Shown piece after piece: positions 3,921 to 19,534 of a stretch of DNA of 64,000 nucleotides. The position numbers and the translations under genes are program-made. Under the pieces are notes generated by a model. That model was not told the DNA's origin and searched no databases. It was given only the letters and a program-made list of their open reading frames with translations. The DNA comes from a phage: the NCBI GenBank assembly GCA_025677605.1, contig GCA_025677605.1_4110.1; one strand, 5' to 3'. Within the stretch, counting starts at the first letter, position 1, and each line of letters starts with the position of its first letter.

Positions 3921-3924
3921 ACTT

Positions 3925-4854: not shown

Positions 4855-5439
4855 TTATCGTGTTATAGTTACGGCTTTTACGTCGCGTTGTTTATAGTAC
4901 TGATTCCAGATATTGCGGGTTAAACCGTAATCAAGTACTTTAATCAGGCCATTGCGATCTTGGCCTATGTTCTGCTTTCTGATATCTCTTATCGTTAGTG
5001 TTGATAAGGTATCATCAACGTGTTGTAGTGCATCAGCGAAATGGTGTTGGCGTTCAATAGTGTTACGTTTGACATTGTACTTTAATTCATTGCAAGCGTT
5101 AACGTGCTTTACACTGCCTTTGCTTGCAGTACTCAAACGATCCATAACAATAAACATATTATCAGGATCGCTTAAATGCATATGCACCTTAGCAAAGTAC
5201 TGTTTAAGGTGAGGGCGGTCATAATCTAAAAAATTCCATACCTTACATTCTGTTTCATTTTGTTCTACGCCAGCGTCACAATTAGCGACCTTAATCACTA
5301 ACCGATCATTTAAAGCGAATACGATACGGGATGATCCGGCCCCGATGATCTCCAGACCAGCCAACCGACAAGCTGTAAGGATCTCTTTGTTAGTTTCCAT
5401 TTCTGCCAGTGTACGGATGAATTTAGTATAATTACGCAT
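4855..5439 (-). CDS. putative small protein kinase-like protein (194 aa)
   Basis: Gly-rich loop IIGAGSSRIVF, lysine in VIKVA, catalytic-loop-like IRDIRKQN, DYG in place of DFG; by eye only. Confidence 0.4.
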   Translation of the reverse strand: MRNYTKFIRTLAEMETNKEILTACRLAGLEIIGAGSSRIVFALNDRLVIKVANCDAGVEQNETECKVWNFLDYDRPHLKQYFAKVHMHLSDPDNMFIVMDRLSTASKGSVKHVNACNELKYNVKRNTIERQHHFADALQHVDDTLSTLTIRDIRKQNIGQDRNGLIKVLDYGLTRNIWNQYYKQRDVKAVTITR

Positions 5440-5508
5440 TGCATTTACTCTTTAAGATAGCAGGGAGGTATTCCCTGCCTTGATGTGACTATTATATGTT
5501 AGTACTAA

Positions 5509-5736
5509 TTAGATTGCAACAGTTTTATTTGCAATTACAGAATGAATTGCGGTTTTACCTGATTTAGTACTGAATACATTAGCACGACCATTTTCAATAG
5601 TGATGCGGTATTCACCTTTACTATCAATGAGGTTGATAAATTCAGGAGTACTAAACCGAGTTACTTTAAAAGTCAGTACATTGAGTAGGTCCACCAGCGT
5701 AGTAGTTTCTTTGATGCGTTCTAAGATATTAATCAT
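5509..5736 (-). CDS. hypothetical protein (75 aa)
   Basis: track ORF. Confidence 0.55.
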   Translation of the reverse strand: MINILERIKETTTLVDLLNVLTFKVTRFSTPEFINLIDSKGEYRITIENGRANVFSTKSGKTAIHSVIANKTVAI

Positions 5737-5794
5737 TTTGTTTCTCCCCGTGTTGGTATAGATACATAGTACTAAAACAATTGAGTACTGTCAA

Positions 5795-6013
5795 TTAGAT
5801 AATTGCATATTTCTTTAAAGATAATGCGTCTTGTGTTGGCTGATACTCGATACCGTTACCGTTATCTACTTTAACTAATAAACCTTTGTCAATTAGTTTT
5901 TTAATAGTCCGTTGGCCTTGTTGAAAATTGGTAAAATGTGAATCATTACGAAAGGTATAACCGTGCTTAACTGCTTCATCAATAGTTTTCTTTTCGATTT
6001 TAGATAATTTCAT
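5795..6013 (-). CDS. hypothetical protein (72 aa)
   Basis: track ORF 5795..6070 trimmed to ATG at 6011-6013; upstream 58 bp duplicates the 5737-5795 promoter region. Confidence 0.5.
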   Translation of the reverse strand: MKLSKIEKKTIDEAVKHGYTFRNDSHFTNFQQGQRTIKKLIDKGLLVKVDNGNGIEYQPTQDALSLKKYAII

Positions 6014-6066
6014 TTTGTTTCTCCCGTGTTGGTATAGATACATAGTACTAAAACAATTGAGTACTG

Positions 6067-6321
6067 TCAACGTGATATTAGTTTTATTTTCTTATTATAT
6101 TGTTGGTGTTCATATAGGTTTATCTTTCCTGTATTCTCGATTACTATTCTGTTGTTGGTGTCCACGTCGATTACACGCAGTTTGCCGTTGCTTAACTTCC
6201 TGGGCAATAGATTACCATTAATAAACTCATTAGCAAGCTGTACGGCCTTTGTGATGATTCTCTGTGGTGCTTTATAGTGTACCCGCAAGATATTATCTTT
6301 TGATAGTTGAACCTTAATCAT
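6067..6321 (-). CDS. hypothetical protein (84 aa)
   Basis: track ORF. Confidence 0.55.
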   Translation of the reverse strand: MIKVQLSKDNILRVHYKAPQRIITKAVQLANEFINGNLLPRKLSNGKLRVIDVDTNNRIVIENTGKINLYEHQQYNKKIKLISR

Positions 6322-6383
6322 TTTAGTTTATCCTATAAAAAAGGCGGGAACTGATCCCGCCGTGTTGTTAGTACTGCAAGTTA

Positions 6384-6788
6384 TTAGATAACCTGGCGGC
6401 GTTTACTGTATACGGTAACACGGTTTCCCTTACGGTCATGACGGATCTCTCGTTTGTTGCGAATCAGTTCACTTGGACGCTTCAGGTTTACCAGGTGATC
6501 CGCGTGAGTCCATGCATTCGAATTTACCTGTACTTTAATATCAGAACCAGCGATAAATTCATCTTGAGCGTTAAGTACTGCTGACAGTTCATCAGCTTTC
6601 TTCTGTTCTGCTGCTGTCAGTACTGGCTCCGGTGAATTCACAATATCAGAGATTTCTTTGAACTGTACGGCCCAGCGTTGACCTTTCGGTGCGGTCGTGC
6701 CCATGTCTTTAAATGCTGCTCCTTCCTCGCGTGCAACAATACGGGCAGCTTCACGGGTAGCGTAGAATTTAGTAATCATGGTATACAT
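6384..6788 (-). CDS. hypothetical protein (134 aa), paralog of 18198..18464
   Basis: shares ATRE.AR..G.AFKDMG and C-terminal HDRKGNRVTVYS with 18198..18464. Confidence 0.6.
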   Translation of the reverse strand: MYTMITKFYATREAARIVAREEGAAFKDMGTTAPKGQRWAVQFKEISDIVNSPEPVLTAAEQKKADELSAVLNAQDEFIAGSDIKVQVNSNAWTHADHLVNLKRPSELIRNKREIRHDRKGNRVTVYSKRRQVI

Positions 6789-6874
6789 CCTATTAGTTAA
6801 GTTAGTACTACAAGTTAGAGTCTATTATAAAGTACTATCTGGGCAATGTCAAATAGTACTTTAAATGGATTCTA

Positions 6875-7198
6875 TTACATATCTTTCTTACGTTTTACAT
6901 CGTTGTAGCGAACTGTGATTTCTTTGTTGATCTCTTTCTCAATGTGGTGAATAACTTTTTCTTTCGGGTTGAAACCTATAACCGTTTCTTTAATGATCTC
7001 CAAGCCCGTGTATTCGCCTTGTGTACCGTAACCGTAAGTAAAGGTTTCATGTCCCAGGTCTTCCCAGCGGTCGCCAATCAACGCAGACACGTAGCAAGAG
7101 TGGTAAGTATTGCCGTGTGAATCAGTCCACCGATTAACTTTAATGTCAAAGGATGTTACAATTTTCAGTTCTACTTTCTGGGTAAGGATCATAGCCAT
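6875..7198 (-). CDS. hypothetical protein (107 aa), paralog of 12672..13016
   Basis: shares GNTY, YGYG and C-terminal DVKRKKD with 12672..13016. Confidence 0.6.
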   Translation of the reverse strand: MAMILTQKVELKIVTSFDIKVNRWTDSHGNTYHSCYVSALIGDRWEDLGHETFTYGYGTQGEYTGLEIIKETVIGFNPKEKVIHHIEKEINKEITVRYNDVKRKKDM

Positions 7199-7286
7199 TT
7201 TTATTTCTCTCTTTTAGTTAGGAGGGGAACCGTTTCCCCTCACTCGATGTAAACTATTATACAGTACTAAGATACTTTGTCAATAC

Positions 7287-7469
7287 TTATTTTTTGGAAA
7301 GTTTACGCATTAATTCTACGCTTTCTTGTGAACGTTTTGCTACCTGGCAATCTGCATGGGCAGTAAACATTTTTGTATAGTCTGACGCTTTGCCACCGAA
7401 CCGAGCGGCACGTTCACGGGCACTTGGAACTAATACAATTTCTTTCTTACAGATAGTGCACTTAGCCAT
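7287..7469 (-). CDS. hypothetical small Cys-containing protein (60 aa)
   Basis: track ORF; CxxC near N-terminus; 5' region near-identical to that of 6875..7198. Confidence 0.55.
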   Translation of the reverse strand: MAKCTICKKEIVLVPSARERAARFGGKASDYTKMFTAHADCQVAKRSQESVELMRKLSKK

Positions 7470-7556
7470 TTTTATTTCTCTCTTTTAGTTAGGAGGGGAA
7501 CCATTCCCCTCACTTGATGTAAACTATTATACAGTACTAAGATACTTTGTCAATAC

Positions 7557-7832
7557 TTAAGTATTGTAAATGTCGTGAATAGTGATAAAGTTTTTACGAC
7601 CGTAAACCTGTAAATCAGTATCAATGTAGTGCTTATCAAGTACATCCTCGACGCTTAACGCGGTGTCGTGAATATCTTCATAGAATTGAGGATCTACAAT
7701 CTTGCTTAAGTCATCCGGCGTTAACTTATCGTTAAGCCATTGAACCGCCTGGATATCTGCTTCACGTTTCCAGTCTTGCAGGTTAGTAGTCAGTACTTGC
7801 TCGATTTCGTTAGCTGTCAGTAGAATCCGCAT
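7557..7832 (-). CDS. hypothetical protein (91 aa)
   Basis: track ORF; tandem promoters and conserved leader element upstream. Confidence 0.6.
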   Translation of the reverse strand: MRILLTANEIEQVLTTNLQDWKREADIQAVQWLNDKLTPDDLSKIVDPQFYEDIHDTALSVEDVLDKHYIDTDLQVYGRKNFITIHDIYNT

Positions 7833-7909
7833 TTTATGTTTCCTTATCAGTAGTTGATGTAAGTATTATACTCGTTTACTTTCTATTGTCAAACTATTTT
7901 ATCAGGGGA

Positions 7910-7972
7910 GTTTTTCGTATGTCTTACTCCTGGACTACTTAACGGGGTTACTTGTTTCATTCCCCGTCCTGA
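7910..7972 (-). repeat. conserved leader/small-RNA-like element, copy A
   Basis: near-identical to 17947-18021 and related to 14888-14948; lies between two tandem promoters. Confidence 0.5.
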
Positions 7973-8147
7973 TGTAAAACATTATACTTGATTCTAAGTA
8001 CAATGCAAGTACTTTTTTAAAAATAGTTTTCAGTACTAGCCACCAGCAAACAATAGATACATTTATGCACCCGGTGGGCTAGTTTTTGTCTATGCATATA
8101 TAATAGCAAAGGGACTGACCGGAGTCAATCCCTTTTTTCAATTTATT

Positions 8148-8297
8148 TTATGCCTCGCGAGGGTTGCGATATGTGATAGCGTTCGGGTACATTTGTTTTA
8201 AGTTATTCCACGCCTGGTTAACACTGTATCCGCTGGACCGTATCAGTTGATGCATACCTTTACCCAAAAACGTAACTTCGAAAATGTATTCTTTCAT
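8148..8297 (-). CDS. hypothetical small protein (49 aa)
   Basis: hand-translated; AAGGGGG RBS; ATG overlaps stop of 8294..8467. Confidence 0.4.
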   Translation of the reverse strand: MKEYIFEVTFLGKGMHQLIRSSGYSVNQAWNNLKQMYPNAITYRNPREA

Positions 8298-8467
8298 GCT
8301 ACGGCCCCCTTGTCGGCTTTACCTTTACGCCAGGACGTTACTAATTGTTCGCGTTGCCATAAGTCGAGTGATACAAAAAGTTTTGCGGTATCACCCTTCG
8401 GATATTCGCCAGTAGTACCCATCCGATAAAACAAATCTTTCAGTACTGACAATTCTACATGGATCAT
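8294..8467 (-). CDS. hypothetical small protein (57 aa)
   Basis: hand-translated; AGGAG RBS 8 nt upstream of ATG. Confidence 0.45.
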   Translation of the reverse strand: MIHVELSVLKDLFYRMGTTGEYPKGDTAKLFVSLDLWQREQLVTSWRKGKADKGAVA

Positions 8468-8645
8468 TTTAGATAACTCCTGCTTTGCTTAAGTAAACTA
8501 ATACGGCCTGTACTGCCATAATGATTGCAATTACTACTATGAACGGATTCATGTGCATAACTGTTACCCTTATATGGTGGGGAGAAAACTTCTCCCCTTG
8601 ATGTAATTAATTATACAGTACTGTGATACTTTGTCAAATACTTTT

Positions 8646-8858
8646 TTAATCTTTCAGCCAATGATCTTGGATGAATTTTTCACCGAAGCCTTGCTGCATG
8701 GATTGTAACAGGCGTTCACGGTGTGCGGCGGCAAACTGCTCAGTACTATGCGTTACACCTGGTTGATATCTGGATTCACCATTGGGGGCGATGTATTGTA
8801 CATCCCACGGTTTAGCGTTAGTATCAGACCATTTACGAACGATTAGTTGACCTTGCAT
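8646..8858 (-). CDS. hypothetical protein (70 aa)
   Basis: track ORF 8646..8888 trimmed to ATG at 8856-8858 (MQGQLIV) after GAGGAAAG. Confidence 0.55.
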   Translation of the reverse strand: MQGQLIVRKWSDTNAKPWDVQYIAPNGESRYQPGVTHSTEQFAAAHRERLLQSMQQGFGEKFIQDHWLKD

Positions 8859-8944
8859 TTTTCTTTCCTCAGTACTGGGGAGAATCATTTCTCCCCTTCA
8901 TGTAACTTATTATACAGTACTATAATCTATTGTCTAGTACTTTT

Positions 8945-9133
8945 TTAAAGTTTATGTATCAGTTCTTTATCTAAGCGATAGCGTACATTATTAATAGTAA
9001 CGGCATTGTTTTTAATGCTACGCTGTACAGGTCCACCAGCAATAACAAACGTTGCCTTATTACCCCGAACAATGATAGCACTTCCTGGATTGCCGTATTC
9101 ATCTTGTACTAAAATACTTGATAAGTTTTCCAT
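8945..9133 (-). CDS. hypothetical protein (62 aa)
   Basis: track ORF; second ATG has better RBS spacing. Confidence 0.5.
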   Translation of the reverse strand: MENLSSILVQDEYGNPGSAIIVRGNKATFVIAGGPVQRSIKNNAVTINNVRYRLDKELIHKL

Positions 9134-9293
9134 TTTCATTTCCTCTTAGTAGGGGAAGATGTTTCCCCTTCATGTAAAACATTATACACTATCTTTCAGT
9201 ACTGTCAATTACTTTTTAGTACTTATTTAAACGCTCTCAATCGCATTCTAACGAGCTAATCTATTTTGTAGTACTATCGGATAGGTATATACT

Positions 9294-9323
9294 AAAAAGC
9301 CCACCAGCGTTAACCAGTGGGCT
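9294..9323 (-). terminator. intrinsic terminator (AGCCCACCAG..CTGGTGGGCT + U-run)
   Basis: inverted repeat with A-run on plus strand, directly after the 9320..9463 stop. Confidence 0.55.
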
Positions 9324-9463
9324 ATAATCTTACATCTTGCGGATAATCTTAACAGTATCTTTCACCGATTTACCGTCTTGCTGGCATTGTTCGATCATTG
9401 CGTATTGTTCTGCGGTCAGATCTTCGCCAGTTTTTGCCAGTACTGCTTCGATGAATGAATCCA
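9320..9463 (-). CDS. hypothetical small protein (47 aa)
   Basis: hand-translated; RBS AAGAGAGAAA; terminator follows. Confidence 0.45.
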
Positions 9464-9572
9464 GTGCGATCATTTTGTTTCTCTCTTAGGTTAAGTTAAC
9501 TACTGTTTATAAAACTTATTATACAGTACTATCAAACTATGTCAATATCTTTAATAGTACTGGTAATATATT

Positions 9573-9752
9573 TTAGCGGTAGTCGTCGTATGCTTTATTC
9601 ACCTGGCGAATGTAACTTTCAAAGGCTTCGTCTACCGTTTCATACTCCCGAACATAATCACCATAGGAAACTACATACATCCCTTTTTGATCTTCAAACG
9701 TCATGATGATAGAATCCAGGCCGATGATTTCAGTTTTTGCGATGATAGCCAT
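9573..9752 (-). CDS. hypothetical protein (59 aa)
   Basis: track ORF 9573..9815 trimmed to ATG at 9750-9752 (MAIIAKT); upstream codons read through promoter. Confidence 0.5.
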   Translation of the reverse strand: MAIIAKTEIIGLDSIIMTFEDQKGMYVVSYGDYVREYETVDEAFESYIRQVNKAYDDYR

Positions 9753-9834
9753 TTTTAATTCCTTAGTAGTGTAGTTGATAAAATCTATTATGCCAGTACT
9801 ATCAATCTTTGTCAATAGTACTGTGATAATATTT

Positions 9835-10047
9835 TTAATCGATAATGGTTAATGTAAAGTTATAATCACCGCATCGATATAGCACGTTATTCCCAAATGT
9901 TCCAACCAATCGCACATCACACAAAACGCCAGTTTTTTCTTTTACTTCCTTGATACTTGTAACTCCTGTAATATCTTTATTAAAGTATTCATGGTCTGAA
10001 AATAAAACTTGTTTTGCATTTTTCAATTTCGACCGGATATTAGCCAT
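9835..10047 (-). CDS. hypothetical protein (70 aa)
   Basis: track ORF; promoter + hairpin upstream. Confidence 0.6.
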   Translation of the reverse strand: MANIRSKLKNAKQVLFSDHEYFNKDITGVTSIKEVKEKTGVLCDVRLVGTFGNNVLYRCGDYNFTLTIID

Positions 10048-10142
10048 TTTGTTTTCTCTCTCTGTTAGTGGGGAGAACTATTCTCCCCTTGATGTAAACT
10101 ATTATACAGTACTATAATCTATTGTCAAACTATTTTTTAATA

Positions 10143-10484
10143 TTATTCGAAATCTTCTGGACCGGACTGATAATCATCTTCACCGTATGCACTTTCTAAC
10201 TTCTCGCCAGTGCAATCATCAGTTAGTGAGTCATCCTCATAGTTCACGTCTACGCCCGTGATGTAAAACTGGCTATCGTATGGATCATTGAAATTAATTT
10301 TCTGAATGTTTACAATAACTGTATTGATGCCCAGGACACCGCCATCAGCCGTTACAAAGTACTGATAGTTTTCACATCCACCACTATTGAAACCGTAATT
10401 GATTTCGGCCCGACCATCATTTAAACGCAGTGCCTGAGCGATGAATTCGTTTTCAAAGTTAGATTGAGCAATTGCAATAGTCAT
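10143..10484 (-). CDS. hypothetical acidic protein (113 aa)
   Basis: track ORF; promoter + hairpin upstream. Confidence 0.6.
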   Translation of the reverse strand: MTIAIAQSNFENEFIAQALRLNDGRAEINYGFNSGGCENYQYFVTADGGVLGINTVIVNIQKINFNDPYDSQFYITGVDVNYEDDSLTDDCTGEKLESAYGEDDYQSGPEDFE

Positions 10485-10583
10485 GATTCGTTTCCTTATT
10501 ACCAGGGGAAACGGTTTCCCCTTGCTATGTAAAACATTATACTTGATTCTAAGTACAATGCAAGTACTTTTTGCAAAATACTT

Positions 10584-10766
10584 TTAATCCCTTTGATACT
10601 CACATAACGCCATATCATACGCAATTGACGCTGATTTGAAATCATCGTGTCGCTCAATCTCTTTCATGTCAACATAGATGATCCATAGGTTTACGTCTTC
10701 CTGGCGTATGATAACGGCAGGTTTACCGATGATATGTGATGCCGCTAGTTCGATTGGATTAAACAT
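10584..10766 (-). CDS. hypothetical protein (60 aa)
   Basis: track ORF. Confidence 0.55.
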   Translation of the reverse strand: MFNPIELAASHIIGKPAVIIRQEDVNLWIIYVDMKEIERHDDFKSASIAYDMALCEYQRD

Positions 10767-10885
10767 TGTAGTACTCCTTATTAGATTGATATATTTTATT
10801 TACACTTCCGCACCCTGTGGGCTAGTGAGCTATCTCTCAATGAATATATAATAGCAAAATGGCTGACCGAAGTCAACCACTTTTT

Positions 10886-11023
10886 TCATTTATTTTTAGC
10901 TTTTAGAATCGCCGCTTTTCGCGTCATGCCTTGCTTGATGTACTCCTTTACTTTCGCTTTACGTGCTTTCGCTTTATCTGCTTTCGTTTTAGGAGTACTG
11001 TAAATTAAACCGTTAGGATTCAT
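10886..11023 (-). CDS. hypothetical small basic protein (45 aa)
   Basis: hand-translated; weak RBS. Confidence 0.3.
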   Translation of the reverse strand: MNPNGLIYSTPKTKADKAKARKAKVKEYIKQGMTRKAAILKAKNK

Positions 11024-11109
11024 TTAAATCACCATAAAGAATAGATAGGTTACTAACAATGCCGCGATCAATGCACCGATCACCGCCGAACTGTAATAAG
11101 CCAATGATT

Positions 11110-11262
11110 TCATTTTTTAGCCTGGAAGTAATGTTTAATTTGTGCGGCGGTCAATGCACAATTACGCAGGAAGTTTTCTGTATAACTGCGACGAGTACTG
11201 AAAGAAAATTGACCTTTGCCGTTGCCGATAGTAACATCAAACCGAGCATTATATTGTTTCAT
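11110..11262 (-). CDS. hypothetical small protein (50 aa)
   Basis: hand-translated; AGGAGAA RBS 6 nt upstream. Confidence 0.45.
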   Translation of the reverse strand: MKQYNARFDVTIGNGKGQFSFSTRRSYTENFLRNCALTAAQIKHYFQAKK

Positions 11263-11346
11263 TTTGATTCTCCTAGTATCAGGGGAGAACCATTTCCCCC
11301 CCCTCTATGTAAAACATTATACAGTACTAAAAACTAATTGCAAGTA

Positions 11347-11493
11347 CTATTTTTTAGATTTACGCAAACTTTCTACCATCTCAGGAGTAAGGCCCGGCGG
11401 GTAGGAAACCACTTCATCAACGAAACGTAAAGGGAATACCCCAGCGAAAGGTGAACATGCTTTCTTAGTATTACTCTTTTTTGATGCTTTCAT
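11347..11493 (-). CDS. hypothetical small protein (48 aa)
   Basis: hand-translated; promoter + hairpin at 11500-11580. Confidence 0.4.
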   Translation of the reverse strand: MKASKKSNTKKACSPFAGVFPLRFVDEVVSYPPGLTPEMVESLRKSKK

Positions 11494-11575
11494 TTCATAT
11501 TCCTTAATTAGTGGGAAGTACTATTTCTCCCCTTCATGTAAAACATTATACAGTACTAAAAACTAATTGCAAGTA

Positions 11576-11818
11576 TTATTTTAAACTTTGTGCGACTAAT
11601 TTCGCACGGTCAATCATATACTGCCATTTTTTGATCTCTTCTGGTAGAAAACGATATTCACCAATAACAATAGTGATACACTTTTCAGCCTGGTCAATGT
11701 ATGTAGTGTCAATCTCGACTTGAACGGGTACACGTTCGCCGTAATCAGTGCCAGGGATAATACAATCATTATCATAAGTAACAGTAGTAGCAGTGTCTTT
11801 GATTAAAATTGTTTCCAT
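11576..11818 (-). CDS. hypothetical protein (80 aa)
   Basis: track ORF. Confidence 0.6.
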   Translation of the reverse strand: METILIKDTATTVTYDNDCIIPGTDYGERVPVQVEIDTTYIDQAEKCITIVIGEYRFLPEEIKKWQYMIDRAKLVAQSLK

Positions 11819-11888
11819 TATACTTTCCTCGTTAGGTGTAAGGGGAAAAAGTTTCCCCTCTATGTAAACAATTATACAGTACTGAAAA

Positions 11889-12098
11889 CTAATTGCAAGT
11901 ATTATTTTCTAAAAAATGATTGTATGCTGCATCAACCACTCTTTCGATAACATACGCCAACGGCACGTATCCAACTACATGACTACAATAGAAAGGACTA
12001 CGATTAGAATCATCGTATGCAAATACTTTACCAGGTACGGCATCAATCACATACATATTAACCTTTAAGATGTCGATCTTATCCTGTACAGTAAGCAT
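11889..12098 (-). CDS. hypothetical protein (69 aa)
   Basis: track ORF 11889..12125 begins at a TTG; first ATG at 12096-12098 used. Confidence 0.5.
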   Translation of the reverse strand: MLTVQDKIDILKVNMYVIDAVPGKVFAYDDSNRSPFYCSHVVGYVPLAYVIERVVDAAYNHFLENNTCN

Positions 12099-12099
12099 A

Positions 12100-12270
12100 T
12101 TACGCCGCCTTATCAGTACTAGCAACCGGACGGATACGGGCCATCGCCTGGGCTTGTTCTACGCTGTATTGTTCGTATAGTCTGCATTCTTCCGGTGTAG
12201 GAATAGCATCAATACGTTTCATTGGTTTAATGATGCTTTCAACTTCATTCAGTACTTGATTAACGTTCAT
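12100..12270 (-). CDS. hypothetical small protein (56 aa)
   Basis: hand-translated; GAGGATAA RBS; stop abuts next ATG. Confidence 0.45.
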   Translation of the reverse strand: MNVNQVLNEVESIIKPMKRIDAIPTPEECRLYEQYSVEQAQAMARIRPVASTDKAA

Positions 12271-12321
12271 GGTATTATCCTCAATATTAGCGGCCTAAAT
12301 CAACCGCTAACGATGTTTTGA

Positions 12322-12591
12322 TTAATAGGTGTATGGTTGACGCTCAAACAATGAATAGACGTTATACGCCCCGCTAATGGGCTTCGCTGGCAAATCAATT
12401 TTATATTGTTCACGCTTAAAGATAATAAAACGGCAATTGTTTTTTACATCAAAATTGATTGAACGTTCCAGGAGTTTTCCATCGTGTACAAATACAAGAT
12501 AACCGCTTGGTACTTGTTTTGTAGTACTGGTTGCAACCATAGACCGACGAACATGCGTACCTGCATCGATTAAAGTACTGATATTTTTCAT
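12322..12591 (-). CDS. hypothetical protein (89 aa)
   Basis: track ORF. Confidence 0.55.
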   Translation of the reverse strand: MKNISTLIDAGTHVRRSMVATSTTKQVPSGYLVFVHDGKLLERSINFDVKNNCRFIIFKREQYKIDLPAKPISGAYNVYSLFERQPYTY

Positions 12592-12671
12592 TATACTATC
12601 CTCTTAAGTTAATTTAATTTCTTTCCCCTATGCAGACACTATATCAAAGTATCTGCATAAAGTAAAGCTAA

Positions 12672-13016
12672 TTAAAGATCTTTTTTGCGTTTAACATCAG
12701 TTACCGAACTGTAAACAGTGATATTATTGTCACGGCAAAAACGGGAAAGATAAGAACCGCGTAAAAACTCTTTACCTTCCATATCAATAACCTTGCTAAA
12801 TTCATCCATTGCTACGGTGTCAAAGTGATCCCCGTATCCATATTGGAACGGCACGTTTACTACTTCAATAAAATTACCATCAATTTCTACGTCTACACTT
12901 AAAGAGAAATAAGTGTTACCATATGAAGCCTGGAACCAACGCCGAGCGGCAATATGTACAACTTCAACAGAAGACAGGTTGATATTTTGTGCTGTGATAG
13001 TGTTGATGTTAGCCAT
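12672..13016 (-). CDS. hypothetical protein (114 aa), paralog of 6875..7198
   Basis: track ORF; shared motifs with 6875..7198. Confidence 0.6.
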   Translation of the reverse strand: MANINTITAQNINLSSVEVVHIAARRWFQASYGNTYFSLSVDVEIDGNFIEVVNVPFQYGYGDHFDTVAMDEFSKVIDMEGKEFLRGSYLSRFCRDNNITVYSSVTDVKRKKDL

Positions 13017-13096
13017 TTTTAGTTTCCTCAGTTGTTTTGATAAAATCTATTATGCCAGTACTATCAATCTATGTCAATAGTACTGTGATAATAATT

Positions 13097-13309
13097 TTAC
13101 TTACTTTCTTTCGATGCTTTATGTTGTGCAACTGCCATTACTACATCAGCACGAACAAAGTTTTTAACCGTGTCAGTGTAATAATTGATTGCATCGTCTA
13201 TATCTGCGAACGTCCGATACATACCGCACCAAGATACTTTATAACCTGCTTTCACTTGTTCCAGCTTAACCAGTGATTTGTTTACTTTGATTTTAGTAAT
13301 GATAGCCAT
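13097..13309 (-). CDS. hypothetical protein (70 aa)
   Basis: track ORF; promoter variant TTGACA-17-CATAAT upstream (three copies of this promoter region). Confidence 0.6.
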   Translation of the reverse strand: MAIITKIKVNKSLVKLEQVKAGYKVSWCGMYRTFADIDDAINYYTDTVKNFVRADVVMAVAQHKASKESK

Positions 13310-13391
13310 TTTTTGTTTCCTCTTAGTTGTCTTGATAAAATCTATTATGCCAGTACTATCAAACTATGTCAATAGTACTGTGATAATATTT

Positions 13392-13535
13392 TTACTTACT
13401 TTTTGCTTTCTTTGCTGCTTCCACCTGGTCGGCCCACTCTTTACCCCATACTTGAGCATTATAGTGATACTGACAAAGAGCAACGCCCCGCTTCAAACCA
13501 GTAATAGATTTTTTACCACATTGACAAGTTTTCAT
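13392..13535 (-). CDS. hypothetical small Cys-containing protein (47 aa)
   Basis: hand-translated MKTCQCGKK...; promoter + hairpin upstream. Confidence 0.45.
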   Translation of the reverse strand: MKTCQCGKKSITGLKRGVALCQYHYNAQVWGKEWADQVEAAKKAKSK

Positions 13536-13622
13536 TTTAGTTTCCTCTTAGTGGGGAGAACCATTTTCTCCCCTTGATGTAATGTATTATACTTTATCTG
13601 ATTTACTTTGCAAGTACTTTTT

Positions 13623-13850
13623 TTAATTTAATTCATCCAGGCAAAGGATACGCTCAACGCCCAAATCAGTTAAACTAATAGACGGCACTTGATAGGTTTC
13701 AACGTATTCTACACTCGCCCACTGACCGAACTCATTCACCGCCCAGGTATTCATTGCAAAATGTAATTCCGCACCTTTCTTATTAGTAATTACAGCAACA
13801 GTAGAAGAATTGCCAGTAGTACCAGATACGCGAGTGATTACGATAGCCAT
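13623..13850 (-). CDS. hypothetical protein (75 aa)
   Basis: track ORF. Confidence 0.6.
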   Translation of the reverse strand: MAIVITRVSGTTGNSSTVAVITNKKGAELHFAMNTWAVNEFGQWASVEYVETYQVPSISLTDLGVERILCLDELN

Positions 13851-13920
13851 TGTTTTGATTCCTATTCAGTAGTTGATGTATGTATTATCGCAGTACTTAA
13901 AACTATTGTCAAACTATTTT

Positions 13921-14073
13921 TTAAAGTTTATCAATGATTGATGCCGTTTCATTGATAGTCTTGCCGTGTTTTGCACACGCGATAACTGCTTTAAATTCCT
14001 TTGATGACCAATCTTTTTTACTGCATACTGACATTACTTGTAAAGTGAAACAATCCAGTTCATAAGTATTCAT
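13921..14073 (-). CDS. hypothetical small protein (50 aa)
   Basis: hand-translated; TGAGGATAT RBS. Confidence 0.4.
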   Translation of the reverse strand: MNTYELDCFTLQVMSVCSKKDWSSKEFKAVIACAKHGKTINETASIIDKL

Positions 14074-14177
14074 CTTTATATCCTCAGTTAGTTAAGGTGT
14101 CTCGCCTTGATGAAATTAATTATACGCTAATCTCTTAATCGTGCAAGTACTTTTTATTAGTTTTTGCAAAATACTTT

Positions 14178-14269
14178 AAACGCCCGCAATCGCATTCTAA
14201 CGACCTTAACGCCACCAGCTAGGGCGATGCATCAGATAATCAGTTTAATGCGTTAGAATCGATTCTAGG
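14178..14269. repeat. conserved motif AAACGCCCGCAATCGCATTCTAACG with inverted partner CGTTAGAATCGATTCTAGG
   Basis: motif also at 9229-9253 and 19431-19456, each just distal to a terminator. Confidence 0.45.
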
Positions 14270-14300
14270 CGGTGCTGGGGGCATGGTAAACGATAAACAC

Positions 14301-14327
14301 AAAAAAGCCCACTGTTTAAGGTGGGCT
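14301..14327 (-). terminator. intrinsic terminator (AGCCCAC..GTGGGCT + U-run)
   Basis: inverted repeat with A6 on plus strand, after the 14349 stop; same design at 15031-15058. Confidence 0.55.
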
Positions 14328-14348
14328 AGTGATTCAGTACTTTAATTG

Positions 14349-14831
14349 TTATGCTTCAACTTTGCGATGAGCTTCGATCCATTCCTCGCGAGTCAATCCG
14401 CTTTCTTTGATAGCATCCAGTACTACGGCAATGCAGTTACCGCGTACTGGTACAGTGTATTCCTCGCCATTATCCAGAACTACCGGCACGCGTTCCTGAA
14501 TCCATTTTTTAGCTTTTACTTCTGGCTTGTCTTCCCCGTATTTCGCTGCCAGGGCTTTACGTGCCATTTCGGTTACTACTTCCAGATCAAGCCCAGCGAC
14601 GGCGGCGTTAATATCTTCAATCGTTTTCTGCAATTCAGCTTCGCGTGCTGCCTTCTCAGCTTCAAGTGCCGCCGCTTTATTAGCTTGTAGTTCTTTCGCT
14701 TCGCTGTACGCAATGTTAAAATTGTTGCGTACTGCTTTCATGGTATCGCTATCCAGTTCAGCCAGGATCTCAGCCGCTACGTTAGTTTCATTTGCTACCA
14801 GTGCTTTGATGAATGATTTTACATTAGCCAT
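14349..14831 (-). CDS. hypothetical Ala/Glu-rich protein (160 aa)
   Basis: track ORF 14349..14846 trimmed to ATG at 14829-14831 after TGAGGAAT. Confidence 0.6.
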   Translation of the reverse strand: MANVKSFIKALVANETNVAAEILAELDSDTMKAVRNNFNIAYSEAKELQANKAAALEAEKAAREAELQKTIEDINAAVAGLDLEVVTEMARKALAAKYGEDKPEVKAKKWIQERVPVVLDNGEEYTVPVRGNCIAVVLDAIKESGLTREEWIEAHRKVEA

Positions 14832-14887
14832 TATATAATTCCTCAATTAAAGTTTAGTTTACGTTTATTAGTGTATCAAAGTTTTCT

Positions 14888-14948
14888 TGACGTGTCCAGT
14901 TTTTCGTTCGACTTACTGGCGGTCTACTTAGTGTTCCCCGTCTTGATG
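14888..14948 (-). repeat. conserved leader element, degenerate copy C
   Basis: related to 7910-7972 and 17947-18021. Confidence 0.4.
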
Positions 14949-15030
14949 TAATACATTCTACGCTTTTCTTCGGTAATGTCAACTACTTTTTTAAAACTAT
15001 TTTCAAAGTATCTCAGTACTACACCACTAC

Positions 15031-15058
15031 AAAAAAAGCCCACTGTTTAAGGTGGGCT
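15031..15058 (-). terminator. intrinsic terminator (AGCCCAC..GTGGGCT + U-run)
   Basis: same inverted repeat as 14301-14327, downstream of 15076..15375. Confidence 0.55.
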
Positions 15059-15075
15059 ATTGATTCAGTACTAGA

Positions 15076-15375
15076 TTATAAACAGTTAATTACTCCTGTG
15101 TGCGTTACTTTCTCAGTATCCATAACCGTGACCGAACCGCGTTTTTTCTTCGCATCATAATAAATTGTTGTGCTACCTTTCGCATCTTCTTCATGGAACG
15201 GGCCATTTTTAAATGCTTCTGGCTGTAATTCCAGATCCTTTAAAACAATCTCGCCAGTACTTTCATCGGTCATTGCTACGGTGCACTGAATGAATTTATC
15301 ACCAGGTACATCTAACGACGCATTAACAGCGAAAGAGGAAACAGATAAAGCCAGGGCGATGATTGCTACTTTCAT
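15076..15375 (-). CDS. putative secreted protein (99 aa)
   Basis: N-terminal signal-peptide-like MKVAIIALALSVSSFAVNA. Confidence 0.6.
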   Translation of the reverse strand: MKVAIIALALSVSSFAVNASLDVPGDKFIQCTVAMTDESTGEIVLKDLELQPEAFKNGPFHEEDAKGSTTIYYDAKKKRGSVTVMDTEKVTHTGVINCL

Positions 15376-15460
15376 TTGATTATCCTTAGTTACCAGGGGA
15401 ACCGTTCCCCCCCTTGCTATGTAAAATATTATACAGTACTAAAAACTAATTGCAAGTACT

Positions 15461-15697
15461 TTATGATTTTTTATAAAACATTTCGGCAGTGATATTTTTA
15501 CCCGTTGGTTGTACTTTATCCAGGATTTTTTGATGCCCGGACCGTCCAAATGAATATGATCCGTAAACCGTAAACCAGTAGTTACCCTCAGTGTTTACAT
15601 GTACAGCACAATAGGGAACGCCCCGCGATTCATCACTAGTAAAGTGTGCTACCGTTCCCGTTACATTCGAAGACGTTGATTTGATTTGTTCGACCAT
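15461..15697 (-). CDS. hypothetical protein (78 aa)
   Basis: track ORF. Confidence 0.6.
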   Translation of the reverse strand: MVEQIKSTSSNVTGTVAHFTSDESRGVPYCAVHVNTEGNYWFTVYGSYSFGRSGHQKILDKVQPTGKNITAEMFYKKS

Positions 15698-15805
15698 TTT
15701 CTTATTCCTTAGTTACCAGGGGAACCGCTCCCCCTATGCAAAACATTATACGCGTTTAAAAACTATTAGCAAGTATTTTAATAAAAAGTATTTGAAAAAT
15801 AGTTC

Positions 15806-15934
15806 TTGACAACTGCATCCAATACTGGCATAATTACTACATAAAGACAAAACAGTCTCTAACCCACCGGGTGCATAGATCCGTCTATTAAATGATTCAG
15901 TACTGAAAAAAGAAAGGGGATCAATTGATCCCCT
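15806..15934 (+). ncRNA. candidate small plus-strand transcript (promoter TTGACA-17-CATAAT, conserved CTAACCCACCGGGTGCATAG element, hairpin at 15915-15934)
   Basis: plus-strand promoter in an otherwise minus-strand block; no ORF; ends at a hairpin + T-rich stretch. Confidence 0.3.
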
Positions 15935-15939
15935 CGTTG

Positions 15940-16161
15940 TTATTTTGTAAGGTATAAACAGAAGTCACCTTTATTTGCTACGCCGCCAGTGTAACGCGAT
16001 GAATAGTTAGAAACGTCCTGGACTTCTGCTATTACCAGTGTATCATCATTCAATTCGTCGCAGAAGCAAACGGCTGGATCTTTTACGCCGATATTGTCGG
16101 CATGTTCCCGCATAGATTTAACCAGTGCTTCAAGTTGGGAAAGGGTAGTAATGTTAGCCAT
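15940..16161 (-). CDS. hypothetical protein (73 aa)
   Basis: track ORF 15940..16191 trimmed to ATG at 16159-16161 (MANITTL). Confidence 0.55.
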   Translation of the reverse strand: MANITTLSQLEALVKSMREHADNIGVKDPAVCFCDELNDDTLVIAEVQDVSNYSSRYTGGVANKGDFCLYLTK

Positions 16162-16246
16162 TTTATTTTCCTCATTACCAGGGAGAACCATTTCTCCCCT
16201 CTATGTAAACCATTATACAGTACTAAAAACTAATTGCAAGTACTTT

Positions 16247-16450
16247 TTAATTTAATTGCTTAAAAACATACTCAAAGACACGACGCACATCATTGATCAT
16301 CGCCTGGCGGTTAGCAGGTAACGCATCAGGATCGCCACTATCCCAGGCATTGATAAAACTCCCCAAATCATGATAGATTTTATTCTGTAAGCCGATTAAC
16401 TGCAATTCTTTTTCTTCAAGCTCTTTGATACGTTCAATTAAATCACTCAT
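16247..16450 (-). CDS. hypothetical protein (67 aa)
   Basis: track ORF 16247..16486 trimmed to ATG at 16448-16450 (MSDLIERI). Confidence 0.55.
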   Translation of the reverse strand: MSDLIERIKELEEKELQLIGLQNKIYHDLGSFINAWDSGDPDALPANRQAMINDVRRVFEYVFKQLN

Positions 16451-16467
16451 TATATAATCCTTAGTAC

Positions 16468-16752
16468 TTAACTGTAAGATCCGCAACGGTCGCAGTAGTG
16501 CCCGTCCTCGTCATCGTCAACGAATTGACCGACGAAATGATCTACTTTCGCTTTCAGGTTATTATAATCGTTTTCTACTTCCTTTAAACGCTTCTGGTAG
16601 TATTCCAGTGCTTTAAGATATGCCGCATCAGCAGTTTTCTCCTGCATAGCTAAATTCATGCCACGCGTTTCATCGTACAGCCAAAAACCATCGGTGCACT
16701 GGCTAATAGATAATGACTTGCTTAGTACTGTATAGTTAATTACTTTGCTCAT
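16468..16752 (-). CDS. hypothetical protein (94 aa), C-terminal CDRC motif
   Basis: track ORF. Confidence 0.6.
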   Translation of the reverse strand: MSKVINYTVLSKSLSISQCTDGFWLYDETRGMNLAMQEKTADAAYLKALEYYQKRLKEVENDYNNLKAKVDHFVGQFVDDDEDGHYCDRCGSYS

Positions 16753-16837
16753 TAGATAATCCTCAGTAAAGGCGGGAACTATTCCCCGCCTCGATATAAA
16801 GTATTATACGTTAATCTAACTACAATGCAAGTACTTT

Positions 16838-17110
16838 TTAGTTTTTTAATTCTTTTACTGCATCAGGTGCGACAGAACCATCAATGTATTGAACATCGTT
16901 TTCAACTTCACGGGCGGCATCATTCAGCAGATCAAAATTAAATTCCATTTCTTCCAGATCATCAAAATCAGGCTCATAACCATTAATTGTTGAATAAGTC
17001 CAAGTACCTTTTTCATAAGTCACGACACTTACATCAGGGAAGAAATCTTGCACATGATCCATTGCATCCCGAACCAGTTGATGTGCAGTTGTGATATTTA
17101 AAGTTTTCAT
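16838..17110 (-). CDS. hypothetical acidic protein (90 aa)
   Basis: track ORF. Confidence 0.6.
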   Translation of the reverse strand: MKTLNITTAHQLVRDAMDHVQDFFPDVSVVTYEKGTWTYSTINGYEPDFDDLEEMEFNFDLLNDAAREVENDVQYIDGSVAPDAVKELKN

Positions 17111-17203
17111 TTTGTTACCCTTTTAGTGTGAGCGGGGAACCACTCCCCGCCTCGATATAAAGTATTATACGCTTTTAAACTTAGTATGCAAGTACTTTTT
17201 AAA

Positions 17204-17878
17204 TTAATATTCGATTGATTCTACTACGCCATCAATAACATTGAATTGATATTCGTTACCCTCAATCAGTGCCGTAATGTTTTCAGTAGTGAATTGATCC
17301 TCATATGCATTCTCTAAATCACGGTACAACTTGCGGGATAATTCACGAATAGTTTCAGTGAGTAGTTCCTCAAGCTCATTAACTAACGCTTCTTGTTTTG
17401 CGGTTAAATCAGTGTAAGCCGATTCAATGTACCCGCTTACAGTGTTTTCATGCGAGTAGTTGGAGTGAGAACGCTTTACACTCATTGCCAAATCATCTTC
17501 ATTCAGCAGGTGACGGATTGAGCGATACTTAGTTAATGCTCTAACCTTGCGTAAAAACTTCTCAGCGTCAACGTGGTCAGTACTAATTGATGCACCGTCA
17601 CCCTGCGACCAAAAACCACTGAATTGTATTTCAGCGTCATTAATGCCATATTCCGGTAGTACTGTTTCTTTATAGTATTCAATTTCACTTTCAGAAAAAT
17701 AATCGTCGTTTAAGTTTTTTTCACGTTCCCGAACCAGTTCGATAGCTGACGTTTGTTGTTCTGCGTTCAATTCAGAAAAATCCATAACGAAAGTAGTATT
17801 AGTGACAGTTTTCGCTTTGCAACCCTCATTCAATTCAGAAAAATCCATAACGAAAGTAGTAGTAGTGATAGTTTTCAT
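17204..17878 (-). CDS. hypothetical acidic protein (224 aa) with N-terminal tandem repeat
   Basis: two direct copies of TTTFVMDFSELN encoded by a duplicated segment of about 57 bp at 17770-17880. Confidence 0.6.
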   Translation of the reverse strand: MKTITTTTFVMDFSELNEGCKAKTVTNTTFVMDFSELNAEQQTSAIELVREREKNLNDDYFSESEIEYYKETVLPEYGINDAEIQFSGFWSQGDGASISTDHVDAEKFLRKVRALTKYRSIRHLLNEDDLAMSVKRSHSNYSHENTVSGYIESAYTDLTAKQEALVNELEELLTETIRELSRKLYRDLENAYEDQFTTENITALIEGNEYQFNVIDGVVESIEY

Positions 17879-17946
17879 TTTGTAACTCTCATTCAGTAGT
17901 TGATGTAAGTATTATACGCTTTTAAAAACAATTGTCAAACTATTTT

Positions 17947-18021
17947 ATCAGGGGAGTTTTTCGTGTGCCTTACTCCTGGGCTACTTAACGGGGAGTTACT
18001 TATTTCGTTCCCCGTCCTGAT
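17947..18021 (-). repeat. conserved leader/small-RNA-like element, copy B
   Basis: near-identical to 7910-7972. Confidence 0.5.
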
Positions 18022-18197
18022 GTAAAACATTATACGCCTTTAAACATAGTTTGCAAGTACTTTTTATCAAATAGTTTTCAGTACTGGCATTGTACTTAAT
18101 CACTTTACTATAGATACACTTCCGCACCCTATGGGCTATCGCCTTGTGTCCGGCTTGTAAGTATTATCTCACTAAGCCGGATAATGGTCAAGTACTT

Positions 18198-18464
18198 TTA
18201 TTCAAGTACTGCAATCTTTTTAGTACTGTACACGGTAACACGGTTTCCCTTGCGGTCGTGCTTTATTTCTACCACTCGACGCGATACACTATCAGGACTT
18301 TTTAACGCCGCTAACCAGTACTGAATTGATCGGGCTGTACTTTGCTTTACTACGGCCCAACGTTTACCCCTGGCTGATTGTACGCCCATATCTTTAAACG
18401 TTGCACCGTCAACCTTTGCCGCTTGCCGAGCTTGTTCACGCGTCGCAAAGTATATAATATTCAT
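18198..18464 (-). CDS. hypothetical protein (88 aa), paralog of 6384..6788
   Basis: track ORF 18198..18518 trimmed to ATG at 18462-18464 (MNIIYFATRE). Confidence 0.55.
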   Translation of the reverse strand: MNIIYFATREQARQAAKVDGATFKDMGVQSARGKRWAVVKQSTARSIQYWLAALKSPDSVSRRVVEIKHDRKGNRVTVYSTKKIAVLE

Positions 18465-18546
18465 GCTGTTACCCCTATCGTTGTTGTATAAAAGAAATCT
18501 ATTATAAAGTACTATCACCGTGCAATAGTACTTTTAATCTATTCTC

Positions 18547-18786
18547 TTACATGCCAACCATTGCAGCACGGATCGCAGTAGTGCTATACTTGAATCCGTC
18601 CGGTGTTTTATCTTGTCCAGTCTGTTCTAAAAATAGCATCATATGACGGGCCGCATCATTTCGATTAGTGTTAGCGGCAATAAAGTCCAGGGCCAACCGG
18701 TATAATGATTCATCGTTATTAATCCAAAGGCTTACATTCCATTGAGTTTTGTTTTTGTGACCTAAGAACATTTTTGATTTAGCCAT
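18547..18786 (-). CDS. hypothetical protein (79 aa)
   Basis: track ORF. Confidence 0.6.
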   Translation of the reverse strand: MAKSKMFLGHKNKTQWNVSLWINNDESLYRLALDFIAANTNRNDAARHMMLFLEQTGQDKTPDGFKYSTTAIRAAMVGM

Positions 18787-18879
18787 TTTTAAATCCTCTT
18801 AATTATAGTGGGGAACTATTCCCCACCGGATAGAAAGTATTATACATTAATCTAATTACTTTGCAAGTACTTTTTTAAC

Positions 18880-19242: not shown

Positions 19243-19534
19243 CGTTTTAATTCCTATTAAAGTGAGTTAGGAGCGTTTCCCCCGTCTCGATGTAAAACAT
19301 TATACGCCCTTAAACATAGTATGCAAGTACTTTCTACAAATACTTTTAAAATAGTTTTCTTTCTATATAGGAGTACTATCATTCAGTACTGAATCAATCC
19401 AGTGGTACAATTATTCAGTACTATACCCTTAAAACGGCCTCAATCGCGTTCTAACGCATTAATACACCTAAGCTATACATTTGCACCACTCCCAACAATC
19501 CAGGGCTTTACGGGCCGTTTAAACACCAGTACTG

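Follow-up and report, generated by a model that had tools for sequence, protein, structure and literature searches.

What are the repeats that crowd the early-gene block of a phage genome: the remains of recently duplicated genes, or copies of a regulatory element lying between the genes? The DNA in question is the 64,000-nt stretch of contig GCA_025677605.1_4110.1 (GenBank assembly GCA_025677605.1), referred to below as the window. A reading of positions 5737-18464 from the letters alone (the sequence-only reading) had listed paralogous genes, repeated promoter regions and a tandem duplication, and had taken them as signs of recent segmental duplication and of active recombination between repeated promoter modules. 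We find that a promoter cassette, present in ~40 copies of which most have a hairpin, stands ahead of almost every small early gene. The repeats are very probably copies of this one dispersed family of regulatory cassettes, not the debris of recent segmental duplication. Alignment with relatives further shows that the genomes differ by gain, loss, replacement and reordering of gene-plus-module units, with the junctions in the modules.

When the segment 5000-19500 was compared with annotated phage genomes by Megablast, 181 records were returned, led by Asteriusvirus jumbo coliphages of the PBECO4/121Q/G17 group. Identity to Asteriusvirus genomes is ~90-96%, in pieces only, the top single record covering 81% of the query in 16 pieces. 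By this measure, the window is from an Asteriusvirus jumbo coliphage (PBECO4/121Q group). In the relative vB_Ec-M-J, the block homologous to the early block is annotated as a direct terminal repeat (DTR) of 21,525 bp, the records of four relatives start at sequence homologous to window position ~21532, and PhageTerm gave a 20.7-kb DTR in Sharanji, also an Asteriusvirus (PMC11895373). We therefore take ~290-21532 of the window to be the terminal repeat. The early block has ~55 small minus-strand genes, most having a promoter module of their own, and 15 of the 55 are variable in presence across eight relatives. Eight of the early-block proteins, the paralogues discussed below and the larger early proteins, were scanned: nothing in Pfam exceeded curated cut-offs, and each best match in PHROGs was a family of unknown function.

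The promoter module and its copies

A repeat search of the window recovered at least 21 module copies. With a module profile, 33 matches were found, all on the minus strand and every one within the terminal repeat (1149-21147), and only 3 weak matches lie elsewhere in the 64 kb. As 22 of the 33 matches to this promoter family fall inside 5737-18464, the repeats first listed there were a partial set. Promoter sites agreeing with the consensus at 10 or more of 12 positions (5000-19500) number 32 on the minus strand versus 5 on the plus strand, and nine score 12/12.

The module is ~85-95 nt long, and the intergenic spaces typically measure 80-99 nt. Along the minus strand, such a space opens with the upstream gene's stop codon. 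An A-tract comes next, then a near-consensus sigma-70 promoter (TTGACA or TTGCAA, a 16-nt spacer that usually ends in AGTACTG, and TATAAT), a conserved nnTTTACAT (the start region) and a stem-loop, for example GGGGAGAA-tag-TTCTCCCC; the Shine-Dalgarno sequence (SD), in an A/U-rich stretch, and the ATG come last. In most copies, the tract AAAAAAGTAC lies upstream of the -35 element. There are also hairpin-less subtypes, the TTGACA-17-CATAAT trio and the 5794/6070 twins. Five long intergenic spaces have a "sixth-type" promoter that starts a leader continuing into the next module, and in four of them the -35 element of the leader promoter lies within a true terminator hairpin. Host RNA polymerase would fire the module promoters right upon DNA entry.

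The closest known system is that of the promoter-early stem-loops (PeSLs) of the T4-type phages RB49/phi1, T4/PST and KVP40/nt-1. PeSLs are ~100-bp motifs in which an AT-rich tract and a strong sigma-70 promoter are joined to a GGGG...CCCC stem-loop and to the SD and ATG of a small gene whose function is unknown; they are dense in hyperplastic regions and mediate insertion, deletion and shuffling of orphan genes plus mini-circles (Arbiol et al. 2010, PMC2839356; Comeau et al. 2014, PMC4122927).

A self-comparison showed that the repeats first listed all exist, at or near where they had been placed, and that their similarity reaches well past the -35/-10 hexamers. The promoter regions 5737-5795 and 6014-6070, described as 58 bp long and identical, do form a repeat, though not a fully identical one (57/59 columns, with one 1-nt indel). 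The near-identity of 7199-7286 and 7470-7556 holds (85/88), and BLAST lengthens this pair to 109 nt at 93.6%. Likewise, the three TTGACA-17-CATAAT copies are real, with 75/84 columns identical between 9753-9835 and 13017-13097, 73/86 between 9753-9835 and 13310-13390, and 76/83 between 13017-13097 and 13310-13390. BLAST also detects repeated leaders, 7847-8040 with 17893-18088 (85% over 196 nt) and 4666-4858 with 7962-8151 (83% over 195 nt).

That these repeats are remnants of recent segmental duplications, in which genes were copied along with their promoters, is nonetheless most improbable. Self-BLAST of 1-24000 shows no gene-scale (~1 kb or more) or otherwise long high-identity duplicate: DNA self-similarity is limited to intergenic modules of ~60-200 nt, and the longest self-matches measure 196-228 nt. 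The sole early-block repeat that enters coding DNA (6666-6880 versus 18351-18552) has 67% identity, a value that no coding-DNA repeat exceeds. Adjacent module pairs that are 97% identical, and the existence of paralogous genes, are what such duplication would predict, and both paralogous pairs are real. They are distant, however, with 33% amino acid identity between the products of 6384..6788 and 18198..18464 (E=3e-16) and 29% between those of 6875..7198 and 12672..13016 (E=4e-8). Among the eight relatives compared, those covering the position have the two genes of each pair, or else a third allele in the same place; at 12672..13016, the same allele is found in A4 only, and the other relatives have a third allele that is 34-37% identical. 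Such low identity, together with this distribution, indicates that the gene duplications are old and predate the divergence of the genus. The near-identity of the modules, in turn, partly reflects constraint rather than recency, since the promoter core, its non-consensus spacer included, is ~90% conserved even in a Yersinia Eneladusvirus, a phage of a different genus.

The tandem duplication, which is specific to the window and one relative, might also be counted in favor of recent segmental duplication, but it arose at a CTGAAT microhomology, typical of slippage, and not at a module. It is one lineage-specific duplication, a different kind of event from module recombination. It had been described as 57 bp long and lying inside 17204..17878; it exists, but it measures 63 bp and spans the start codon. 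Its copies, 17766-17828 and 17829-17891, are 90% identical; the gene's SD and ATG and its first 16 codons all lie within them, and the N terminus gains 21 residues. As the upstream copy holds the SD and the ATG at 17878, former 5' untranslated region (5' UTR) sequence is now translated, and the former ATG in the downstream copy is now GCG. Consistent with an added N-terminal repeat, a PHROG profile matches the protein from residue 25. The duplication is found in the window and vB_Ec-M-J only, six other relatives being single-copy.

Recombination at the modules, within and beyond the genus

Junctions were located from chained BLAST alignments of window 1-23000 with the eight relatives. The 88 junctions collapse into 48 breakpoint clusters, and in this comparison of gene order the breakpoints coincide with promoter modules: 33 of the 48 clusters lie between genes or no more than 5 nt from a gene edge versus 31% expected (P=8.5e-8), and 40 are within 11 nt of one, the intergenic share of the sequence being 28%. 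Several points weigh against a role of the modules in recombination. The ends of BLAST high-scoring segment pairs give the breakpoints only approximately, and the eight relatives do not count as independent. The enrichment alone is no proof of module-mediated recombination, because selection purges indels within genes. Finally, the 70-bp indel at 8576-8645 removes or adds precisely one module without flanking homology, and homologous exchange there is no explanation.

Because selection against in-gene indels adds to the breakpoint excess, the qualitative evidence is the stronger. In several cases, the sequences on either side of a junction both align to a single 45-58-nt module of the shorter genome. 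The locus at 11.1-12.1 kb, between a 50-aa and a 69-aa gene, has four states across the window and the eight relatives: neither cassette is present in CRJP21 and 121Q, a 48-aa cassette is present alone in five relatives, the window has the 48-aa and then an 80-aa cassette, and A4 has the 80-aa and then the 48-aa cassette, at 98-100% identity. In the alignment of this locus, the upstream gene keeps the A/T tail, and the downstream gene is usually accompanied by the hairpin and SD. The crossover therefore falls within the near-identical promoter core of ~48 bp that lies between them, and as far as crossovers can be resolved in these alignments, they are shown to sit in this core. Repeat pairs, including ones first listed, also flank variable cassettes. 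Cassette 7287..7469, whose flanking modules are 97% identical, is missing from 121Q; cassette 13097..13309, flanked by CATAAT modules, is missing from G17 and fEgEco12; and cassette 15461..15697 is located elsewhere in 121Q. Judged by their identity, adjacent modules evolve in concert, at 0.97 within the genome versus 0.82-0.98 for orthologous modules between genomes. Recombination between repeated promoter modules, as the sequence-only reading had proposed, is thus supported by the junctions in relatives, the swap in cassette order and concerted evolution. The conserved core would offer enough homology for phage or host recombination machinery to shuffle cassettes, within the genus as well as with unrelated large coliphages.

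The modules are not confined to the genus. A sensitive blastn search with one 96-nt module matched 64 records, which include Rak2-like phages of Escherichia, Salmonella, Klebsiella, Erwinia, Serratia and Yersinia as well as ~145-150-kb coliphages; no T4-type phage is among them, so that the resemblance to PeSLs is one of architecture, with homology undetected. In Yersinia Eneladusvirus, the promoter core including the spacer and the start region is ~90% identical. A7_1, a 145-kb member of the Vequintavirinae, has an 8-kb block with ten stretches homologous to cassette genes of the window, nine at 68-88% nucleotide identity and one by translated search only, in a completely different order. This block has two full promoter-hairpin modules and several hairpin-less ones. 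A 7.9-kb query returned 301 records, mostly ~130-155-kb coliphages in an even sample of the ranking, including rV5-like and phAPEC8-like phages. Together with the A7_1 stretches, this search indicates that early-gene cassettes are common to several phage families.

Two quite different explanations of the module likeness have to be set against recombination in the core. The first is that selection for strong early promoters, or convergence, accounts for it entirely, that recombination makes no particular use of the modules, and that breakpoints fall between genes since other indels are lethal. Conservation of the promoter core across genera, spacer included, is in keeping with this, and selection alone would lead one to expect an excess of intergenic breakpoints. 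We consider it very unlikely, given the junctions with both flanks on one shared 45-58-nt module, the order swap with its crossover in the core, the high identity of modules within the genome relative to that between orthologs, and the existence of an unrelated phage that has these modules with its cassettes in scrambled order.

The second, which we judge to be highly improbable, is that the modules are more than stretches of homology, being mobile elements in their own right with a dedicated phage enzyme that recognizes the hairpin or an AGTACT-flanked core and moves them. It would fit the precision of the 70-bp module-only indel, which has no flanking repeats, and the finding that in 34 of 40 promoters AGTACT keeps to two set positions with respect to the -35 element; for PeSLs, a stem-loop-binding recombination protein has been a matter of speculation (PMC2839356). 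Yet the 8576-8645 indel has neither target-site duplication nor terminal inverted repeats, most events are accounted for by homologous crossover in the core, and no recombinase was identified in the block, where only eight proteins were scanned (Pfam, PHROGs) with no informative match. The same lack of terminal inverted repeats and target-site duplication led us to reject the modules as MITE-like elements. A broader variant, that the modules define a pool of self-expressing cassettes shared by Asteriusvirus, Vequintavirinae and phAPEC8-like phages and moved as units by a dedicated activity, is also distinctly unlikely. Such an activity would recognize the AGTACT-flanked core or the hairpin, which would explain the 70-bp module-only insertion.

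The hairpin downstream of the promoter

In 28 of 31 modules, a G/C-rich stem of at least 6 bp (6-10 bp) begins 8-14 nt past the -10 element. A covariance model was built on eleven gapless hairpins from a hairpin-centered alignment, and the copies were then realigned to it; its matches in the window are confined to 1135-18830. In the realigned hairpins, both sides have changed in six of nine pairs, 90.8% of cells pair versus 81.9% in shuffles, and the observed covariation score was reached by 0/500 shuffles, with slid registers scoring much lower. The alignment thus shows a stem maintained by compensatory changes. Analysis of 55-nt promoter-to-leader windows with MAFFT and RNAalifold gave no consensus structure, because the hairpin arms were misaligned. 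On the sense strand, G-U wobbles exceed A-C mismatches by 15:4 in the window (two-sided binomial P=0.02) and by 31:8 over 59 distinct, though not independent, hairpins from nine genomes. Such an asymmetry is expected of a stem whose importance lies in the transcript and not in a DNA cruciform. The hairpin is a selected structure, one that probably acts at the RNA level. In the Yersinia Eneladusvirus, no module copy fits the Asteriusvirus hairpin model, and two of the four strong profile matches (at 6002 and 7837 of that genome) have no stem after the start region.

As for its function, the hairpin most likely sits in the 5' UTR and would act on the RNA as a stability element or insulator. This is favored over a classical terminator because the stem has no T-run and lies downstream of its own inferred start. 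None of the module hairpins was called as an intrinsic terminator, no T-run following the stem. Two considerations count against such a role. A start at the conserved A of TTTACAT, the inferred start, would leave ~5-7 unpaired nt before the stem. Such a 5' extension exceeds the ideal for 5'-end protection in E. coli mRNA decay. In addition, a comparable stem-loop of RB49 terminated transcription in a reporter assay, a PeSL stem-loop and the rrnB T1 terminator lowering lacZ expression to a similar degree (PMC2839356).

The latter result, the G/C-rich stems and their position between genes would all suit a stem-loop that is mainly a transcription terminator or attenuator and insulates the cassettes from upstream read-through, as has been suggested, and in part demonstrated, for the RB49/phi1 PeSLs. 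We regard this as unlikely. An efficient terminator downstream of the inferred start would abort the cassette's own transcript at ~+30, and the module stems have no T-run even though the same block has seven canonical minus-strand terminators that do. With a stem that lacks a T-run and lies inside its own transcript, termination was rejected as the main role of the hairpin.

Known systems and further features of the block

All six testable architectural and comparative features of PeSLs are found in the Asteriusvirus modules. There is a strong sigma-70-like early promoter within an intergenic motif, an AT-rich tract upstream of the -35 element, and an adjacent stable G/C-rich stem-loop (present in the 28 of 31 modules noted above and upheld by covariation). 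The motif is ~100 bp long, with the SD and ATG of the downstream gene as its 3' end; it occurs in a hyperplastic region ahead of small genes of unknown function; and the indel, replacement and shuffling junctions of close relatives lie in the motifs. The two systems also differ. The phage here is a Rak2-like jumbo phage and not T4-type, the array is restricted to a long direct terminal repeat, and modules and cassettes are common to unrelated coliphage families. Whereas one of five PeSL subclasses has its stem-loop downstream of the -10 element, as here, the Asteriusvirus stem is nearly always 8-14 nt past the -10, inside the inferred transcript and without a T-run. For Asteriusvirus and other Rak2-like phages, the literature searched yielded no account of PeSL-like motifs, and the promoters annotated in the CBB paper and in the fHe-Yen9-03 record are simple ones only.

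Other systems are more distant. The morons of lambdoid phages enter a new context as single genes equipped with a promoter and, in some cases, a terminator, and their insertion is thought to be illegitimate, without conserved flanking linkers (PMC2839356). In contrast, Asteriusvirus cassettes are flanked by the ~48-bp conserved core, which carries the crossovers. Integron gene cassettes likewise form an array of small swappable genes in one orientation, but the Asteriusvirus cassettes have no integrase or attC and each has its own promoter in place of a shared one. The T5 pre-early region and the SPO1 host-takeover module are clusters of small genes with strong host-type promoters that lie in terminal redundancies and are expressed first. 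What we describe here in addition is a regular promoter-hairpin-SD unit and the shuffling of cassettes.

These results extend PeSL-type modular shuffling from T4-type to Rak2-like jumbo phages, in a long early-gene terminal repeat, and provide a clean natural case in which two cassettes are swapped in order between near-identical genomes. The presence of cassettes and modules in unrelated coliphage families points to an exchangeable pool of host-takeover or anti-defense genes. For annotation, such repeats should not be taken for recent duplications or assembly artifacts. For engineering, the modules indicate natural sites where insertions are tolerated and expression signals are already in place. 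The features are collected in Table 1. In the relatives that have the ~1.2-kb insertion at module 9134..9218, an acetyltransferase and a DksA-like gene are annotated there.

Table 1. Coordinates of modules, cassettes and related features in the window
Feature	Position	Strand	Remarks
Early-gene block, approximately the DTR (~21 kb)	290..21532		Minus-strand genes; boundaries approximate
Promoter + 5' hairpin + SD module	1118..1210	-	
Promoter + 5' hairpin + SD module	1987..2079	-	
Promoter + 5' hairpin + SD module	2334..2420	-	
Promoter + 5' hairpin + SD module	2960..3044	-	
Promoter + 5' hairpin + SD module	3291..3379	-	
Promoter + 5' hairpin + SD module	3838..3928	-	
Promoter + 5' hairpin + SD module	4330..4417	-	
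Promoter + 5' hairpin + SD module	4633..4722	-	
Promoter (17-nt spacer) + 5' hairpin + SD module	5440..5529	-	
Hairpin-less promoter module (TTGACAGTACTCAATTGTTTTAGTACTAT)	5737..5804	-	Neighbor of 6014-6080; 57/59 columns matched
Hairpin-less promoter module	6014..6080	-	Twin of 5737-5804
Gene, family phrog_8127	6384..6788	-	Old paralogue of 18198..18464
Hairpin-less consensus promoter module	6780..6862	-	Upstream of 6384..6779
Gene, family phrog_6246	6875..7198	-	Old paralogue of 12672..13016
Promoter + hairpin module	7199..7293	-	85/88 identical to 7470-7563; pair flanks variable cassette 7287..7469
Promoter + hairpin module	7470..7563	-	Twin of 7199-7293
Long three-promoter leader	7833..8138	-	85% identical to 17893-18088 over 196 nt
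Consensus promoter	7865-7892	-	In leader 7833..8138
Module with long-loop hairpin	7958-8018	-	In leader 7833..8138
Chi site	8040-8047	-	In leader 7833..8138
Conserved 23-nt motif	8056-8078	-	In leader 7833..8138
Terminator-embedded promoter	8100-8135	-	In leader 7833..8138
Promoter + hairpin module	8559..8647	-	Core 8576-8645 is a module-only 70-bp indel versus CRJP21, G17, 121Q
Promoter + hairpin module	8859..8946	-	Upstream edge 8945 is the junction of a 349-bp cassette found in 5/8 relatives
Promoter + hairpin module	9134..9218	-	Junction of ~1.2-kb insertion in relatives
Hairpin-less consensus promoter module	9474..9555	-	
Hairpin-less TTGACA-17-CATAAT module	9753..9825	-	Copy 1/3
Promoter + hairpin module	10048..10138	-	
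Promoter + hairpin module	10485..10573	-	
Promoter + hairpin module	11263..11353	-	Recombination junction
Two mobile gene cassettes	11347..11818	-	48-aa gene 11347..11493, 80-aa gene 11576..11818
Promoter + hairpin module	11494..11582	-	Recombination junction
Promoter + hairpin module	11819..11908	-	Recombination junction
Gene, family phrog_6246	12672..13016	-	Old paralogue of 6875..7198; allele common to A4 only
Hairpin-less TTGACA-17-CATAAT module	13017..13087	-	Copy 2/3
Hairpin-less TTGACA-17-CATAAT module	13310..13382	-	Copy 3/3; with 13017-13087 flanks cassette 13097..13309
Promoter + hairpin module	13536..13623	-	
Hairpin-less promoter module	13851..13922	-	
Promoter module, degenerate hairpin	14074..14156	-	
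Promoter module, irregular long-loop hairpin + long leader	14832..14992	-	
Promoter + hairpin module	15376..15465	-	With 15698-15782 flanks cassette 15461..15697
Promoter + hairpin module	15698..15782	-	
Promoter + hairpin module	16162..16249	-	
Promoter + hairpin module	16753..16840	-	
Promoter + hairpin module	17111..17201	-	
63-bp tandem duplication	17766..17891	-	Two copies, 90% identical
Long three-promoter leader	17879..18201	-	Paralogous to 7833-8138
Gene, family phrog_8127	18198..18464	-	Old paralogue of 6384..6788
Promoter + hairpin module	18787..18876	-	
Promoter module, weak hairpin	19243..19336	-	

Some observations concern the module and leader sequences themselves. The hairpin loops at 1150, 8888 and 16191 read AATGG, with the ATG in frame with the downstream gene, and open reading frame (ORF) callers and some deposited annotations start genes inside the hairpin, 10-11 codons upstream of the SD-preceded ATG; such loop triplets are easily mis-called as starts. 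The long intergenic leaders contain six minus-strand copies of the 23-nt motif CCCAYNGGGTGCRNRRGTGTATC (1691-1713, 4759-4781, 8056-8078, 10799-10821, 18113-18135 and 20222-20244), none being expected by chance. Each copy lies downstream of its own promoter, and three of these promoters are identical, TTGACTCCNGTCAGTCCCTTTGCTATTAT, and embedded in a terminator hairpin. The motif, which has no Rfam match, may represent a family of small non-coding RNAs or a site bound by a protein; across the whole window, neither Rfam at gathering thresholds nor ARAGORN gave a match.

Two biases in short DNA words may be more surprising than the modules. The palindrome AGTACT occurs 273 times in the window against 20.8±4.4 expected, a 13-fold excess that is densest in 1-28000 and far above that of every other palindromic hexamer; several GC-containing palindromes are wholly absent. 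Since AGTACT is found in all three codon phases of long ORFs (64/22/31), the signal is one of DNA. In the promoters, it overlaps the first T of the -35 element and ends one base before the -10 element. The excess is 16- to 20-fold in the eight Asteriusvirus relatives and Yersinia Eneladusvirus, with none in the Vequintavirinae block, and no report of it was found in the literature searched. AGTACT might be bound by a protein or mark a site of DNA modification. Copies of the E. coli Chi sequence GCTGGTGG number 11, where 0.56 would be expected (1648, 1871, 3773, 5691, 8040, 9033, 9301, 14212, 38572, 50245 and 59599), all of them on the minus strand and eight within the terminal-repeat block. 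In this orientation, the sites would be readable by RecBCD moving toward increasing coordinates after entering the repeat end near ~290. Protection of that end, or stimulation of recombination among the early genes, might be their role.

At the other end of the repeat, a ~2-kb stretch (~19.5-21.5 kb) that adjoins the inferred physical end of the genome is nearly without ORFs and holds six copies of TCAGTACTGAATCAT as well as an array of ~22 head-to-tail 8-nt units with the consensus TAGCCATC (20587-20762). In G17, A4 and 121Q, no gene is annotated in the homologous stretch. The array may function as an origin, in packaging or in end binding.

Among the larger early proteins, that of 4855-5439 (minus strand) gave a sub-threshold, protein-kinase-like Pfam hint (E=0.001), one relative's annotation being Ser/Thr kinase, and that of 14349-14831 (minus strand) a sub-threshold papain-fold toxin hint (E=0.004); both proteins may be host-takeover enzymes. 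Further paralogues were noted as well. Genes 2076..2384 and 2416..2682 are 35% identical, the latter being absent in the seven relatives covering the locus. Just outside the terminal repeat, tandem paralogous genes of ~60-66 aa (21777-22939, minus strand) abut without promoter modules, 22553..22741 and 22751..22939 being 51% identical, and G17 and WPEC3 have longer runs of these paralogues than the window.

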